The position numbers and the translations under genes are program-made. The notes under the pieces are model-generated. The model was not told the DNA's origin. It made no database searches and saw only the letters and a list, made by a program, of their open reading frames with translations. A stretch of 64,000 bases of DNA from an uncultured Actinomycetes bacterium (lineage in GTDB: Bacteria > Actinomycetota > UBA4738 > HRBIN12). Location: assembly GCA_963704725.1 (NCBI GenBank), contig OY969934.1, positions 1,536,001 to 1,600,000 on the forward strand. Reading direction: 5' to 3'. Positions 34,293 to 40,138 of this stretch are shown piece after piece; the stretch's first letter is position 1, and every line of letters starts with the position of its first letter.

Positions 34293-34365
34293 GGGCCCAT
34301 AGCTCAGTTGGTAGAGCACATGGCTGGCAGCCATGAGGTCGGGGGTTCGAGTCCCCCTGGGTCCA
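34293..34365 (+). tRNA. tRNA-Ala(GGC); integration target
   Basis: GGGCCCA/TGGGTCC-A acceptor with G3:U70, anticodon stem CATGG/CCATG with loop CT-GGC-AG, T-arm GGGGG-TTCGAGT-CCCCC. Confidence 0.96.
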
Positions 34366-35123
34366 CTTTCAATGCCTTATTCGAACTCGGGCGAGAGAAG
34401 AGAGGCGCGAAGACCTCAGAGAACTCGGCCCGGCCGATCGTGCGATCCTTGATGTAGACGGCCTCGAGCACGGCGTCGTTGAAGCGTCGTCGTACCGACG
34501 GTCGCGCCTTCAGATACGCGGCGTGACAGTTCCCCGCGAGCCGGATGGCCGTTCGAAGCACGTCCTGCCAGCCCTCGAGGTCGCCCTCCGTCGCCTGGAG
34601 CTCGGCCTTGGCCGCATGCTCGGCGAAGCCGATGCGGTCCTGCTCCGTCTTCAGGAGATCGAGCGGGATCGCGTTCGCGTAGAAGGCCTGAAGGAGCTTG
34701 CCGCGCTCGTCGGCCGCCTTGGCGAGCGTCTTCGTGAGCACCACCCGTCGCTGCGAGGCCTCGGCCTGCCGATCGACGATCTCGGCCTCCAGCTCCTCGG
34801 TGAGCCGGCGTACCCATGAGGGTGGCAGCTGGATCCTCCCGTACAGGTCCTCGACGAGCGCCTCGGCGTCGCCGGCCAGGATGTAGGGCTGGCGGCAACC
34901 GGTGCGCGCGGTCCCTCGCTGGCCGAGGCAGTAGAAGTACAGGTACTTGCCCTTGGCGAGCGTGAGCGACAGGCGCCTTCCGCACTCCCCGCAGTGCAGC
35001 AGGCCCTTCAGGTAGTGCTCGTGGCGACGCTGGCGAACCCCGGCGACGTCGCGGGCCTGGAGCGTCTCTTGGACCCGGTCGAACAGGCTCTGGGGGATGA
35101 GCGCCTTGTGCTGGCCCGGATAC
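34304..35123 (-). pseudogene. Large serine recombinase (integrase), C-terminal part only; 5' end lost at the IS256 junction; reads antisense into tRNA-Ala
   Basis: YPGQHKALIPQSLFDRVQ (end of recombinase domain), YLKGLLHCGECG...YFYC...C zinc ribbon, coiled coil. Stop at 34304-34306 lies inside the tRNA D-arm. Confidence 0.88.
34345..34388 (+). other. attL: tRNA T-loop GTTCGA, core GGTCCAC (34360-34366), element arm TATTCGAACTC (34378-34388)
   Basis: Core repeated at 38529-38535; arm is the exact inverse of GAGTTCGAATA at 38507-38517. Confidence 0.75.
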
Positions 35124-36524
35124 GGGTCTGTCCGATTCTTCGTGTAAGTGCGCGGCCGCTGATCATCGGTAGAGAGCGATCCGGTCTCCGTAGTGGAGCA
35201 CCAACGCATTGAGCACCTGCTTCCAGCCGGACACGATCCCCGTCGGGTTCGGGCGATTCTTCTCCCGCTCCAAGACCGCAAGATAGAGCACTTTGAGGGC
35301 GGCCTGCTCGTTGGGGAAGTGCCCTCGTCGGCGGGTGGCGTGGCGAAAGCGCGCGTTCAGGCTCTCGATCGAGTTCGTCGTGTAGATCACCCGGCGGATC
35401 TCCTGCGGGAAGGCAAGGAACGGGATGAACTGCTCCCAGGCCTGGCGCCACAGCTTGATGATCGCCGGATACTTCGGCTCCCACCGATCGGCGAACTCCT
35501 CGAACCGCGCTGCCGCTTGATCCACCGTCGCCGCCGTGTAGATCGGCCTCAGCTCGGTCGTGACCTTCTGCCAGTCGGCCCGCGAGGCGTAACGAAGCGA
35601 CTGGCGGACCAGGTGCACGACGCAGGTCTGCACGGTTGCTGCTGGCCAGGTGGCCTCGATCGCCTCGTCCAGGCCCTTCAGCCCGTCACACGCCACGATC
35701 AGCACGTCCTCGATGCCTCGGTTGCGAAGCTCGGTGAGCACATTGCCCCAGTGCTTGGCGCCCTCGCCCCCGGCACCGATCCAAAGGCCCAGGACGTCTC
35801 GCTCCCCCTCCAGGTTGATGCCACAGGCCACGTAGACGGGGCGATTGGCCACGGCGCCATCTCGGATCTTGACCATGATCGCGTCGATGAACACCACGGC
35901 CCACAGCGCATCGAGCGGGCGGTTCTGCCATTCCACCAGCTCGCCGGCGACCGCGTCGGTGACCTTGGAGATGGTCTCGCGAGAGATCTCGGCTCCGTAG
36001 ATCTCTCGCAGGTGCGCCTGGATCTCCCCGGTCGTCAGCCCCTTGGCGTACAGGGAGATGATCGCCTCGTCGAAGCCGTCCAGGCGCCGGGCGTGCTTGG
36101 GGACGATCTTCGGCTCGAACGTGCCGGCGCGATCGCGAGGAACGTCGATCGGGACCGGACCGACGTCGGTCTGAAGCGTCTTGGGGCTCTTGCCGTTGCG
36201 TGCGTTGGGCGAGTCATTGCGCTCGTAGGGCTCATACCCAAGGTGCTCCGTCAACTCCGCCTCGAGGGCCGATTCCACGACTCGCTTGGTCACCCCCGCC
36301 AGGAGCCCCTCGGGGCCCACGAGGTCGAGGCCCTCCGCTCGTGCCCGCTCCACGAGTTGCTCGGCGAAGCTCGCCAGCTCATCGCGGGAGGGCTGGCGGA
36401 GGCCTCCGGGCATCGACGACCCTGCTCCGTTCTTCGAAGTGTCCATGCGCCATCCTTCCCGGCCCCGACGGCAAGGTCGAGGACCCTCAAGACAGCGCAC
36501 TTACACAGAATTCCTGACAGACCC
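35124..36524 (-). mobile_element. IS256-family insertion sequence (1401 bp)
   Basis: Imperfect 30-bp terminal inverted repeats GGGTCTGTCCGATTCTTCGTGTAAGTGCGC (35124-35153) and GGGTCTGTCAGGAATTCTGTGTAAGTGCGC (revcomp of 36495-36524), 23/30 identical. No target duplication. Confidence 0.92.
35163..36446 (-). CDS. IS256-family (Mutator) DDE transposase
   Basis: AELTEHLGY, RNG, VPRDRAGTFEP, VFIDA, ACDGLKG, QTCVVH, IYTTNSIESLN. Confidence 0.95.
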   Translation of the reverse strand: MDTSKNGAGSSMPGGLRQPSRDELASFAEQLVERARAEGLDLVGPEGLLAGVTKRVVESALEAELTEHLGYEPYERNDSPNARNGKSPKTLQTDVGPVPIDVPRDRAGTFEPKIVPKHARRLDGFDEAIISLYAKGLTTGEIQAHLREIYGAEISRETISKVTDAVAGELVEWQNRPLDALWAVVFIDAIMVKIRDGAVANRPVYVACGINLEGERDVLGLWIGAGGEGAKHWGNVLTELRNRGIEDVLIVACDGLKGLDEAIEATWPAATVQTCVVHLVRQSLRYASRADWQKVTTELRPIYTAATVDQAAARFEEFADRWEPKYPAIIKLWRQAWEQFIPFLAFPQEIRRVIYTTNSIESLNARFRHATRRRGHFPNEQAALKVLYLAVLEREKNRPNPTGIVSGWKQVLNALVLHYGDRIALYR

Positions 36525-37160
36525 GAGGTGCCGAACCCCTCCCCACCACTGTCGCTGTCGCTAAGCGGATTCCAGAGATTGACTGAGACGCAACGAATCG
36601 AATGGCTTGACTCGTTCACTGACTACTGGGGTCTAGGAGGGTGGTTCGAGGCCATCCGGGGCGTGTTGATGGCTGGAAGAGCGACTTCCTTCATGGACAG
36701 AGGGACCTGGTCATCATGGGTTGACGCGAGCATTCTTCATGCAATCTCTGAGGGGATGATGATCCAGAGCGGTGTCATCCAGCACAGTAGGAACCCAGGT
36801 GCTCAGGAATGGGCCGCGTTCTTCGAGGCCCGTCAGACAACCAGCAGACAGACATCCGCAGACACTGGTCTATTTGGCCTGTGGGCCAACGCCGAGTCGG
36901 CCGCCACCCAATTTGGCCGGTACACGGCTGCAAACCATGGGGCCGTTCCGACAGAAGATGAAACAAACGTCGACATGTGGGCGACCGGTTGGCGTGCCGG
37001 AGTCCGGTGGAGGAGTGCCGAGCCAACGCCGGCAGACTACCTGACACCGGAGGGCTTCATCGGGCAAATCGGGCAAGTCTGGGGCGGAGCTCTCTATGAT
37101 CCGACGCTTCCAGCACCCGTCGTTATGCAGCTCACGATGTATGTCTATCTTGGCTTCTAG
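36525..37160 (+). pseudogene. 5'-truncated orphan ORF (211 aa remain), Trp-rich; possible C-terminal toxin-like domain of a larger protein
   Basis: Frame is open from the IS boundary to TAG 37160 with no convincing start or RBS. Atypical codon usage; next gene begins 13 nt downstream. Confidence 0.55.
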
Positions 37161-37173
37161 CGAAAGGGGGCGG

Positions 37174-38244
37174 ATGATGCGCGAAGTTGCCGCCTTGATA
37201 TCGGTCGGCTTGCTTGCTGCCGCATGCTCGAGTTCCCCAGGACAAGTAGCGCCTTCCTTCGTTCAAGGCTCAGTCGTGGATACGCAGCCCGGCAGGATCG
37301 CTGGGCTTGCATGGCCGTCCGCGGAGACCCTGGTCTTCGAGATAGACGACGAACCCGCCGATGTCTCGAACGCAGCCGAAATCTGGCGTGTTCAACTCGA
37401 TGGAACCTCCCGTAGCCAAGTCTTGCTTCCGCAGCTGACGGATTGCAGGCGGACCCGTTATCACAACCCAATTGCCCTTGGGGGCGGCTCGGTAGGTATT
37501 GTACAGGCTTGCGACCTTCAATCGCCCGGTCGGGAGCCAACCTCCTACGCGCTTCTGGCTCTGGACCCGGACCTTGGAGACACGAAACCGCTTGTCAGTA
37601 GTGACCCTTTGGGGTTCCTTGACTCGTTCGCGGCTCCAGTAGCGGCGCCCAATGCGGAACGCGATGCTGCGTTGCTAGCAGTTGGAGATCAGGTGTGTAG
37701 CACGATTGCGTTCGTCGACAAGGACGGCGCGCACCCATTGGACCTATCAATCGGACACGGAACCGAGAGTTGGAATCTGAGTCAGTTCTTCGTCGATGAT
37801 TCCAGAACCTGCGTTGAGCAGGGGCGAGCCGCATGGCCGACATGGTCGAGAAGCAATGGTCTGATTGCCTTCCTCGCCTCGCCCCAGTCCCTGGGGGTGG
37901 GCGGGCTCGCGCGCATGGAACTCCCGTGGAACATCTATCGCTGGTCACTCACTCAAGATCGTGCTCAGACCCTTCTTGAGAACGTCCGCTTCCCGAGGGA
38001 TCTGACATGGTCGCCCGATGGCGAGTGGCTGGCATTCGGAGGTGAGATCGGCGGCCGAGATGGACTATGGTTGCTGAATCCTGCAACGTCGGCCGTTGTT
38101 GAGGTGACTGATGATGCCGTGCTCGCGCTTGCCTGGTCGCCGGATGGTCAGTCAATTGCCGCCTCGGTTGCTACGACGTCGGATGAAGTGACCGGTCCAA
38201 GGGAGCTCGTGACTTATAGCGTCGCTTCTCTTCTCGAGGGCTGA
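37174..38244 (+). CDS. Lipoprotein with TolB/WD40-like beta-propeller repeats
   Basis: Signal peptide with lipobox LLAAA-C; repeats LAWPS, PTWSRS, LTWSPDG, LAWSPDG; AAGGGGG RBS. Confidence 0.8.
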   Translation: MMREVAALISVGLLAAACSSSPGQVAPSFVQGSVVDTQPGRIAGLAWPSAETLVFEIDDEPADVSNAAEIWRVQLDGTSRSQVLLPQLTDCRRTRYHNPIALGGGSVGIVQACDLQSPGREPTSYALLALDPDLGDTKPLVSSDPLGFLDSFAAPVAAPNAERDAALLAVGDQVCSTIAFVDKDGAHPLDLSIGHGTESWNLSQFFVDDSRTCVEQGRAAWPTWSRSNGLIAFLASPQSLGVGGLARMELPWNIYRWSLTQDRAQTLLENVRFPRDLTWSPDGEWLAFGGEIGGRDGLWLLNPATSAVVEVTDDAVLALAWSPDGQSIAASVATTSDEVTGPRELVTYSVASLLEG

Positions 38245-38506
38245 TGAGGGTGGGCGCGGATCTGCCCGCTTCGACTGGGAACTCATGGAAGGTCGTATTC
38301 CCCCGGCGGTTCATAGGTGACAAGTCGCGAGATCGGCGGCCAGTGTCGATCCCAATCATTGGCCTGCTTGTTACGGGCCCTGGATGGAACCCCGGTCAGG
38401 GGCGTGGCTCCTTAGGCCGACGGTCTCGTCTAGGGGAAACGCCGGCCGAGTCTCGAGACCTACATCGCTCACCAGGCCGTGGAACTGAGCAGCCAGACTC
38501 CGCCAG

Positions 38507-38537
38507 GAGTTCGAATAGCATCCCCTCAGGTCCACCA
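38507..38537 (+). other. attR: arm GAGTTCGAATA, core GGTCCAC, displaced tRNA end (CCA)
   Basis: TCCCCTCAGGTCCAC matches the tRNA end TCCCCCTGGGTCCAC at 12/15; rejoining at the core gives ...GGGTCCACCA. Confidence 0.75.
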
Positions 38538-38645
38538 AAGTTCGTGCGTGGCGTGACCAGCAGTTCGCTTGGTCAGTGCTGACGGGATTCGAACTGCGCT
38601 TTCCGCTTGCATGTTGCCGGGTCGGTCCCTATCGGCTGAAGCGGC

Positions 38646-39092
38646 TCAGGCACCCTTGCGGATGTCGGATGCTCGGATGCCTTCGGCCCTCGCTACGGCG
38701 AGCTGGCGTTCGTCGCCCGAGACCAGCTCGGTGCAGCCCAGTTCGATCAGTGCGGCGATGTGCAGGATGTCAAGCGTTCGAGCAAGCGTGGTCGATGCGT
38801 GCGTCTCCGACAGGTGTCCAGCTCGGCGAAACATCGGCTCCAGGTCGATGGTCGGTCGTTCGAGGCGGCCCTCGTCCAGGTCGTCATCCACATGCCCGAG
38901 GAGAGTCCGGAGCTCTCCCGCATCGATCTGGGATCTTCCGTGCAGGAGACGAAGGGCGTTTCTCACCTCTAGGTCGTGAAGCGGCGTCCACGGCACCGAG
39001 ACGTGCTTCCGCAGTTCGGCACGCGCACGGGCCGAGTGCACCTCGTTGACGTAGACCGCGATCAGGGCGCTCGAGTCGAAGTAGACCTTCAC
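38646..39092 (-). CDS. vapC: VapC-type PIN-domain toxin
   Basis: VYFDSSALIAVYVNE, LEVRNAL, RTLDILHIA, VSGDERQ. GTG start overlaps the antitoxin stop (GTGA). Confidence 0.9.
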   Translation of the reverse strand: MKVYFDSSALIAVYVNEVHSARARAELRKHVSVPWTPLHDLEVRNALRLLHGRSQIDAGELRTLLGHVDDDLDEGRLERPTIDLEPMFRRAGHLSETHASTTLARTLDILHIAALIELGCTELVSGDERQLAVARAEGIRASDIRKGA

Positions 39093-39331
39093 CGGTCCCC
39101 ACGGTCTTCGGAGACCTGCCGACTTGGGGGAGGTGTGATGCGTCTTCGTCCCATCGCGCCTCGCGCTCGCGCCGCCAGATCGGGCCACGGCTGCGTCGGT
39201 GTCGGCCTCGCCGGCACGAGTCGGGCTATCGGGCGCCCGCGGCGGGTGATCTGGACGGACTCTCCGCTCTCCACACGATCCAGAATGGTCCGAATCTCCC
39301 GCTGCAACTCCCGCACCGCCACGTTCTTCAT
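39089..39331 (-). CDS. Phd/YefM-family antitoxin
   Basis: MKNVAVRELQ...LDRVESGESVQITRRGRPIARLVP. Confidence 0.9.
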   Translation of the reverse strand: MKNVAVRELQREIRTILDRVESGESVQITRRGRPIARLVPARPTPTQPWPDLAARARGAMGRRRITPPPSRQVSEDRGDR

Positions 39332-39368
39332 GTCATGCATCTTGCATGACATCTGGCCTTCTCGTCAA
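39330..39368 (-). promoter_or_regulatory. TA promoter (TTGACG-N18-CAAGAT) overlapped by palindromic operator ATGTCATGCA-N3-TGCATGACAT
   Basis: Perfect 10-bp inverted arms at 39330-39352 cover the -10 and the start codon. Confidence 0.75.
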
Positions 39369-39378
39369 GGCTTGGGAC

Positions 39379-39536
39379 TCACGAGGCGAGGCGATCGAGT
39401 CTCACCTCGGCGCCGGTCACCGGCGGTTGATGGCTGCCAAGGCCGGTCGGAGCGGCCGGAAGGACACCGCCCGGCGGATCGAGGAGATCCTGCGCCGGGA
39501 GGCCCCCCGATCGCGCTGATCGTCGATGCCGGGCCT
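39379..39536 (+). pseudogene. Decayed CopG/RHH-type antitoxin C-terminal half plus first codons of a PIN toxin
   Basis: Frame reads EAIESHLGAGHRRLMAAKAGRSGRKDTARRIEEILRRE-APRSR* (stop 39519). An overlapping frame reads LIVDAGP, a typical PIN N-terminus. Confidence 0.55.
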
Positions 39537-39569
39537 TCGGTGGTTGTGAGATGGGACCCTCGGGAGCCG

Positions 39570-39896
39570 CTACGCGCCCGGCCCTCGGTACTGGACTTGC
39601 TCGGCCTTGCGCAGGGCGTCCATCGTTTCCTCGATGGTCAGGAGGACCGTCGTTTCGAACGAGCTGAGGGCGCCGCCACCGCAAATCGCAAGCGCCACCG
39701 CGGCCATGGACACGTTGTCCGGGGCCTCCCACAGGTTGTAGCCGTCGTGAGTCCCGAACGCGTACCAGAACCCGTGAAGCTTTCCCCCGACCGACTCGAT
39801 GTATGACTGAGCGGCCTTCTGGCGATCTTCCGGATTGCCTATCAACTTTGCCCAGGTCGCCGGTGTGTAGCTGAACCTCGACAGATAGAGCGGCAT
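39570..39896 (-). CDS. GYD-domain protein
   Basis: MPLYLSRFSYT...EDR...ESVGGKLHGFWYAFGTHD...ETTVLLT; GGAGGGAGGAG RBS. Confidence 0.8.
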   Translation of the reverse strand: MPLYLSRFSYTPATWAKLIGNPEDRQKAAQSYIESVGGKLHGFWYAFGTHDGYNLWEAPDNVSMAAVALAICGGGALSSFETTVLLTIEETMDALRKAEQVQYRGPGA

Positions 39897-40138
39897 TGCT
39901 CCTCCCTCCGATCCCCAAGAGTCGATCCCCAAGAACCCGGGGGATGAGGATACAGGTCACTTCCCGACGTTTCCTTCCACGAGGGACTGCAGCAGATCCG
40001 GCGCTCCGGAGGAGTTCGGATCCCGTCCGCTCACCTCCACCATCGAGCTCGGTCTACCAGGCGACTGGTCGCTTCCCGACGCCGTCGTGGGAGTCGCGAG
40101 AGAGCGGAACTCGAGCGGGTTCGAGCTAGGCTCGGCCT

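Follow-up and report, generated by a model that had tools for sequence, protein, structure and literature searches.

Serine integrases predicted to read the tRNA T-loop as one half of their attachment site: a broken element at tRNA-Ala(GGC) and its family

A broken element at tRNA-Ala(GGC) and its integrase family

The window analysed here is a 64,000-nucleotide (nt) stretch from an uncultured Actinomycetes bacterium (GenBank assembly GCA_963704725.1, contig OY969934.1, positions 1,536,001 to 1,600,000), which carries a 4.2-kb element at a tRNA-Ala(GGC) gene. Directly after this gene, on the opposite strand, lies what is left of a large serine integrase, its C-terminal 272 residues, without the catalytic domain and most of the recombinase domain. 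The element is a broken copy: an IS256-type insertion marks the point where the integrase lost its catalytic half, and a search nearby turned up nothing of the missing N-terminal half. We read it as a dead mobile element whose integrase probably recognized the near-universal tRNA T-loop through its zinc ribbon and cut at tRNA nt 71-72. The features that define the ends are as follows, in window coordinates:

34293..34366, + strand: tRNA-Ala(GGC) (ARAGORN), the target gene, whose 3' arm is the B half of attL
34345..34353, + strand: box in the T-loop (tRNA nt 53-61), where the attB zinc-ribbon site is predicted (-19..-11; geometry after PMC3783163)
34363..34364, + strand: putative crossover dinucleotide CC at attL (tRNA nt 71-72), from the run nt 71-73 common to 22 pairs of ends and from inner symmetry
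34378..34388, - strand: P' arm, box +15..+23, within the integrase coding sequence
34304..35122, - strand: C-terminal remnant of the large serine integrase (zinc ribbon, coiled coil)
38507..38517, + strand: P arm of attR, box -24..-16
38532..38533, + strand: putative crossover dinucleotide CC at attR

When attP is rebuilt from the two ends, the arms at 38507-38517 and 34378-34388 form perfect 11-bp inverted repeats separated by 29 nt, and copies of a 7-bp core occupy 34360-34366 and 38529-38535. The 3.45-Mb genome contains nine perfect 11-bp inverted pairs at a gap of 29 and 38 at gaps of 27-31, so that the chance of such a pair at one given junction is about 1e-5. The original prediction for this locus had named these sites, and all of its sequences and coordinates hold; the perfect inverted arms 29 nt apart and the distance from GTTCGA to the core, 14 nt in attP and 9 nt in attB, were likewise borne out. 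The integrase has no stop codon of its own: its frame crosses attL and ends inside the antisense strand of the tRNA gene (34304-34366), and would continue through the P arm in the attP form.

Three more elements of this family are encoded in the same genome, all with both ends readable and with full-length integrase frames, and the layout of the window element recurs in each:

G000:C1 995960-1008135: further family element
G000:C1 2588255-2598426: further family element
G000:C1 2379270-2388571: further family element

The intact paralogues at tRNA-Ala(CGC) and tmRNA (integrase genes at G000:C1 995996-997540 and 2596570-2598111) are 94-95% identical to the window remnant, while the enzyme of the third element, at tRNA-Glu(CTC), is 47% identical. 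All four elements have equal spacing, though the arms of the Glu element differ in sequence. An intact homologue (P0010) contains Resolvase (PF00239), Recombinase (PF07508), and zinc ribbon (PF13408) domains, and the catalytic serine S10 is invariant across 47 homologues. The structure model has a coiled coil of long helices (351-398 and 404-455) and finds its best fold matches in the Bxb1, SPbeta, and phiC31 integrases; its predicted template modelling score is low (pTM 0.39), and therefore only the fold class is taken from it. Judged by domains and left-half geometry, the family belongs among the large serine integrases of the LI, Bxb1, and phiC31 type.

Homology searches revealed no close relative among named phage and plasmid proteins (best identity 24-36% among the matches listed). 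The C-terminal 179 residues match 527 clusters (50% identity) at E <=1e-10, many of them fragments, and a genome search at class level gained nothing beyond the order. In a viral collection, three of 49 loci are family members; tRNA genes are absent at the 46 distant viral serine recombinase loci, a weak control made up of viral fragments.

Target ends, the 5-bp offset and the crossover position

Loci were gathered by protein searches alone, which yielded 121 distinct integrase C-termini with a readable junction; the loci are related and the counts below are to be read accordingly. In 103 of the 121, the C-terminus runs into the T-arm of a tRNA or tmRNA gene, with the P' box at a fixed offset in 101 of these 103. 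The remaining 18 comprise four attP-type junctions, about seven apparently damaged or unusual tRNA ends (classified by eye), and a rest that is unexplained. After L005 (mis-anchored) and L024 (doubtful) were dropped, 109 left junctions were counted. ARAGORN named the target at 85 of them, one without an amino acid, and these targets span tmRNA and 13 amino-acid classes (Ala, Met, Val, Ile, Pro, Glu, Ser, Gln, Tyr, Leu, Gly, Lys, and Arg). One further family element (L178) apparently sits at a selenocysteine-type tRNA end.

The range of a single lineage is smaller. Every one of the 18 junctions of the closest relatives, whose integrases have 84% or more identity to the reference, carries the ending T70-C71-C72-A73, the alanine-type end common to tRNA-Ala and tmRNA, whereas the sister group in a family tree built in a quick version uses Glu. 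Near-identical enzymes can nevertheless be found at different genes, for example Ala(CGC) and tmRNA (94.6% identity), Val and Lys (95.0%), or Ser(GGA) and Ser(TGA) (93.9%). The suggestion that these enzymes target tRNA 3' ends broadly thus holds for the family as a whole, with a narrower range in single lineages such as the closest clade.

In order to locate the opposite ends, the inverted P' arm plus common core was searched downstream of each left junction, with the spacing left free between 10 and 25. A candidate above threshold was found at 28 of the 109 junctions, and in 23 of these the T-loop-like box lies exactly 5 bp further out than in the tRNA; the other five are scattered. With a stricter score, 19 of 21 far ends have the 5-bp-shifted spacing, while control searches of reversed and complemented DNA, in twice the amount, returned one match and none. 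Among the first 88 loci, 22 of 23 candidates have the expected spacing, and the offset stays at 5 across proteins that are ~40-95% identical. As an independent check, the P-arm pattern was searched with the core left free: CCA follows at nt 71-73 in 36 of 48 matches (by eye), compared with four matches in total for the reversed pattern. For the arm of a second clade (31 matches), C71 follows in 29 and C74 in 30, with nt 75 onward scattered.

With the cut placed at nt 71-72, the P box occupies -24..-16 and the T-loop -19..-11, the positions given for the zinc-ribbon box of the LI integrase, 16-24 in attP and 11-19 in attB (Rutherford et al. 2013, PMC3783163). The 5-bp offset between attB and attP that the original prediction had proposed is exact in 23 of the 28 far-end candidates found with free spacing, and its boxes fall on the published positions. 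In addition, the T-loop matches six of the seven LI attB bases named in that source (T19, T18, T17, C16, G15, T12, and C11) in the same register, and the integrase fold may have been pre-suited to a T-loop target. The proposal that the T-loop is the binding motif of the integrase is supported as far as comparison at the nucleotide level can reach, and the binding itself is predicted.

Recognition could instead depend mainly on acceptor-stem bases (nt 63-74) or DNA shape, with the T-loop adding little specificity and only fixing the attB-type geometry. The confinement of the closest clade to T-CC-A ends would be expected from such a mode, as would the occupancy of the window genome, where three of the four T-CC-A genes are occupied compared with one clear case among the other 44. 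Two clades with arms unlike the T-loop also speak for it, and the inner 9 nt of the P arm resemble the cognate tRNA (5.3 of 9 matches, compared with 4.4 in permuted pairs; 2/2000, with kin not independent), a likeness that fits co-adaptation, gene conversion, or a relic origin. Against this, the 13 target classes have hardly any acceptor-stem sequence in common, in contrast to the constant T-loop box, of which both attP arms carry a copy with fixed spacing. We consider recognition mainly through the acceptor stem or DNA shape unlikely, and T-loop reading through the zinc ribbon remains the preferred account.

The crossover was placed by comparing both ends of 22 pairs. The only run common to all 22 is nt 71-73, with nt 70 differing in two pairs and nt 74 in one; the shared run measures 4-10 nt in 21 pairs and 15 nt in one. 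Inner palindromic symmetry is seen in 41 of 66 cases about nt 71-72, in 17 about nt 70-71, and in none about nt 72-73, other centres giving 0-22. The crossover is therefore likely the dinucleotide at nt 71-72, not the 7-bp core. Arm symmetry in the class with a 28-nt gap suggested nt 70-71 as the centre, but a crossover there was rejected because nt 70 differs between the two ends in two of the 22 pairs and in two further arrays.

The same family could read the T-loop in the same way and cut at nt 72-73, which would make the site more lopsided. The smallest common run, nt 71-73, would accommodate this, no pair has ends that differ at nt 73, and in two arms nt 71 is T, against C in the tRNA of their array. 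The symmetry count of 0/66 about nt 72-73, compared with 41/66 about nt 71-72, points the other way, and only a cut at nt 71-72 puts the boxes at 16-24 and 11-19, so that we give the 72-73 position a low probability.

Far less credible is a tyrosine integrase acting in trans with a 7-bp overlap, the serine recombinase being a passenger. The 7-bp core of the window element and the status of tyrosine integrases as the usual tRNA-targeting enzymes (PMC4383910) are what would suggest it. However, the common run shrinks to 4 nt in other pairs and only nt 71-73 is shared by all, the arms lie 11 nt from the core, and in 103 of 121 loci the site falls within the gene of the serine integrase. No tyrosine recombinase was matched by Pfam among the scanned open reading frames (ORFs) of the window element and of the second cassette described below. 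Cleavage by the serine integrase at nt 71-72 is the reading carried forward here.

Elsewhere in the window genome, a P arm of the second clade lies 10.9 kb after tRNA-Leu(GAG) (G000:C1 1930786); nt 71-72 of this tRNA read AC and the core of the arm CC, and a distant serine recombinase adjoins the gene.

The right half of the site and stacked cassettes

The two halves of the site are not alike. The P' box is closer to the centre than the P box, by 1 bp in 90 of 105 clear cases and by 2 bp in 15, mostly from one clade. The SPbeta integrase has a structurally confirmed attP/attB shift of 4 bp (PMC11722253), and some play in box position is therefore already known. In the right half of attB, a box at the canonical place scores 2.2 of 9 matches, and at any offset the best window is no better than shuffled sequence (653/1000), that is, no B' box was found; this half keeps A73 and C74 only, and C74 is encoded in 47 of the 48 genes of the window genome. 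The odd 29-nt spacing and the missing right-half attB motif, both noted as caveats when the site was first described, hold as traits of the family. The symmetrical pattern of LI, where each half of attP and of attB has its box, was not found, and because the P' box is closer and a B' box is lacking, the family is set apart as an LI-type variant.

The arm types track the tree, and where arms differ between clades, so do residues of the zinc-ribbon hairpin; this co-change is suggestive at best, with only two to three independent changes. Residues 495-522, which comprise the P' arm and the swapped tail, are modelled with low confidence (pLDDT <50), which favours a reason at the DNA level for conservation of the P' arm.

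These observations also bear on whether the boxes bind protein. The far-end box could be the relic of a duplicated tRNA 3' fragment with a 5-nt insertion and the near-end box could be kept as coding sequence, neither being bound. Some P arms do resemble a tRNA end plus 5 bases (in L186, 13 nt are common with its tRNA), and the P' arm does lie within the reading frame. Against a relic, the two arms change together between clades, the offset is exactly 5 across proteins ~40-95% identical, and residues at and after the P' arm are of low model confidence and differ between clades. We therefore regard a relic origin as improbable and continue with boxes that are predicted to be bound by the integrase.

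The remaining features of the element and its right flank are listed here:

35124..36524, - strand: IS256-type (Mutator family) insertion sequence (PF00872, E 1e-126)
36525..38244, + strand: cargo, an ORF without a Pfam match (end 37160) and an ORF with weak WD40/PD40 matches
38534..40038, no strand: probable older integrase-less cassette with a PIN/Phd toxin-antitoxin pair and a GYD protein (Pfam; 65% G+C)
40012..40022, + strand: second P-type arm, equally spaced from a CC core (40037-40038)

The IS256-type element has 30-bp imperfect terminal inverted repeats and is present in one copy in the genome. It lacks a target duplication, and a deletion beside the insertion is therefore probable. 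The cargo ORFs have 60% G+C compared with 71% for the genome. Within the probable older cassette, positions 38575-38600, just after a short hairpin, resemble an inverted tRNA 3' end and have no match elsewhere in the genome or the collected loci.

The second P-type arm closes this probable cassette. In genome G015, a similar sequence (25/40 identical) directly follows tRNA-Ala(GGC) and is closed by a family arm at 0.9 kb. Together with the arm at 40012-40022, this layout means that the sequence after 38535, used as the right half of the rebuilt attB, probably starts an older cassette. The encoded CCA end that the earlier reconstruction restored is incidental; nt 75 is common to both ends in only 6 of 22 pairs. 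The 8 nt after the core of the second cassette match the start of the P' end of another clade, a hint of a third, decayed insertion.

Junctions between P and P' arms are also found in chromosomes. Among 294 genomes there are ten family-type matches, five of them joining different arm types, and several are stacked behind tRNA-Ala with cassettes of 0.7-5 kb; four more lie at integrase ends, and in four database proteins of the window clade the P' arm reads into the P arm of another clade. The simplest reading of these sequences would let a new element insert at an occupied site, whose right half is then the end of the other element. A cassette-stack-like array with three P arms in 1.7 kb lies behind tRNA-Ala(CGC) at L354-L355.

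Two other groups of pattern matches concern different sequences. Eight viral attP-like matches (L275-L282), with inverted T-loop-like boxes 27-30 nt apart, were set aside, as no family integrase or tRNA occurs within 3 kb; they are possibly operators or attP sites of other enzymes. A conserved 46-nt repeat with inverted ends in ten genomes of the same family (L313, L315-L323, and L326) accounts for 11 matches to the attP pattern and is an unrelated repeat.

Several points weigh against T-loop reading with a cut at nt 71-72. Both the binding of the T-loop and the recombination by family integrases are predicted from sequence. No far end was in reach for 81 of the 109 left ends, and among 21 more distant loci only one of five candidates has the expected spacing; in these loci the true far end probably often lies beyond the search range. 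Because the P' arm served as the far-end query, the likeness of the arms is partly circular, which does not extend to the spacing; the loci are related, so that counts are not independent. The arms of two clades depart from the T-loop at 3-4 of 9 positions and sit at ordinary T-loops nonetheless, so that strict reading may be confined to the (G)TTC part. Where the tRNA of the array has CC, TC is seen in two arms and CG in one, mismatches at nt 71 or 72 that possibly reflect later mutation or a core at nt 72-73. The P' arm doubles as coding sequence, and a native B' preference could be hidden, since the rebuilt right half is in many cases probably drifted or an older cassette. Finally, the predicted empty site has no match among 25 readable tRNA-Ala(GGC) trailers in relatives (29 loci), of which the G015 sequence described above comes nearest. 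The gene to the right of 40040 is ~250-270 kb from tRNA-Ala(GGC) in two relatives, and the DNA to the right of two other elements gave no useful match in 13 congeners.

Proposed mechanism, its use and comparison with known systems

In the mechanism that we propose, one integrase subunit would bind the tRNA half of the site, through the T-loop at -19..-11 and the acceptor-stem bases at the cut; the partner subunit would bind the downstream DNA with little specificity beyond nt 73-74. The boxes of the element (-24..-16 and either +15..+23 or +14..+22) would provide the attP arrangement for attP x attB synapsis, and the element would supply nt 73-74, thereby rebuilding the tRNA. The choice of tRNA would be set by the central dinucleotide, which must match, and by its neighbours; for the window lineage this would be T-CC-A, the alanine type. 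Because the right half would barely be read, an occupied site would stay a target and elements would stack behind the tRNA. Because attP lies inside the integrase gene, recombination would swap the C-terminal tail, which is predicted to be disordered.

Within the available text of each source, serine integrases were described as not known to use tRNA genes (Islander, 2015, PMC4383910), and serine recombinase integration at tRNA genes was called rare in Actinobacteria (Ghinet et al. 2011, PMC3218068). A literature search that did not extend to most subscription journals, other supplements, or the TIGER database, which may list such islands, found neither a T-loop motif for serine integrases nor a multi-tRNA family of this kind. 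The supplement of PMC12884075 has no match to tRNA-Ala or tmRNA, and neither the available text of PMC12884075, PMC13626063, PMC11476347, and 10.1101/402107 nor PMC12424338 bears on att geometry. The routine use of tRNA and tmRNA ends by this family (103 of 121 loci) runs against the view of tRNAs as the territory of tyrosine integrases, and the zinc-ribbon model of attP and attB could be tested on a naturally lopsided site, one half of which is blank.

Because serine integrases depend on no host factors and their sites are short, an enzyme aimed at the conserved ends of tRNA-Ala or tmRNA could be a landing-pad-free tool for non-model bacteria, and the window genome contains two intact paralogues with both ends readable. 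A further proposal is tentative, and we hold it possible rather than probable: this large and little-studied family may recognize one half-site only (the T-loop plus 3' acceptor bases) and be retargeted between tRNA classes via the central dinucleotide, in which case cargo would be placed behind tRNA-Ala or tmRNA in nearly every bacterium, without disruption, by one small enzyme with a matched attP. This could be done repeatedly, since the occupied site would stay a target, building integron-like cassette arrays.

Among known systems, the LI/A118 integrase (PMC3783163) resembles the family in domain order and in its box at 16-24 in attP and 11-19 in attB, although an A118-type chain is matched only distantly in sequence (E 2e-11). 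In LI both attB halves have boxes, whereas the family has one in the tRNA half only and a right attP box that is 1-2 bp closer; unlike LI as described there, the family targets tRNA and tmRNA ends and carries attP inside the integrase gene. SPbeta SprA (PMC11722253) is likewise a large serine integrase and its 4-bp shift is a precedent for the closer P' box, but it has a single protein-gene target, spsM, and no link to tRNA in the available text (PMC5499854).

DsiB of the Dehalococcoides ssrA islands (McMurdie et al. 2011, PMC3146451), a serine recombinase of ~540 aa, is like the family in that its reverse-strand gene overlaps attL without a stop of its own and in that tandem islands lie behind tmRNA. 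According to the same source, DsiB uses ssrA only, with a 20-bp direct repeat, insertion midway through the T-loop, and a small partner, DsiA. The family, with a common run of mostly 4-9 nt at nt 71-73 and many tRNAs, is set apart from it by that description.

Serine recombinases at tRNA genes have also been reported for Mycobacterium AICEs (eight enzymes, tRNA-Leu) and for phiRSM1 (Ghinet et al. 2011, PMC3218068). Each of these enzymes uses one tRNA, and the available text describes neither att geometry nor T-loop reading; phiRSM1 is resolvase-like. The multi-targeting clade of large serine recombinases (Durrant et al. 2023, PMC10083194) shares with the family the presence of closely related enzymes at several distinct targets. 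That clade is defined on protein-gene targets, mostly with DUF4368, which has no Pfam match in P0010, and the term "tRNA" is absent from the main text. Family enzymes that are 93-95% identical occur at different RNA genes, while the 90%-cluster definition of Durrant et al. counts protein-gene targets.

Finally, the tRNA islands of tyrosine integrases (Islander, PMC4383910) share with the family their tRNA and tmRNA 3' targets, the rebuilding of the gene, and tandem arrays, but are made by a different enzyme class. They leave a displaced tRNA fragment where the family leaves none, and the family therefore escapes island finders that rely on tRNA fragments.

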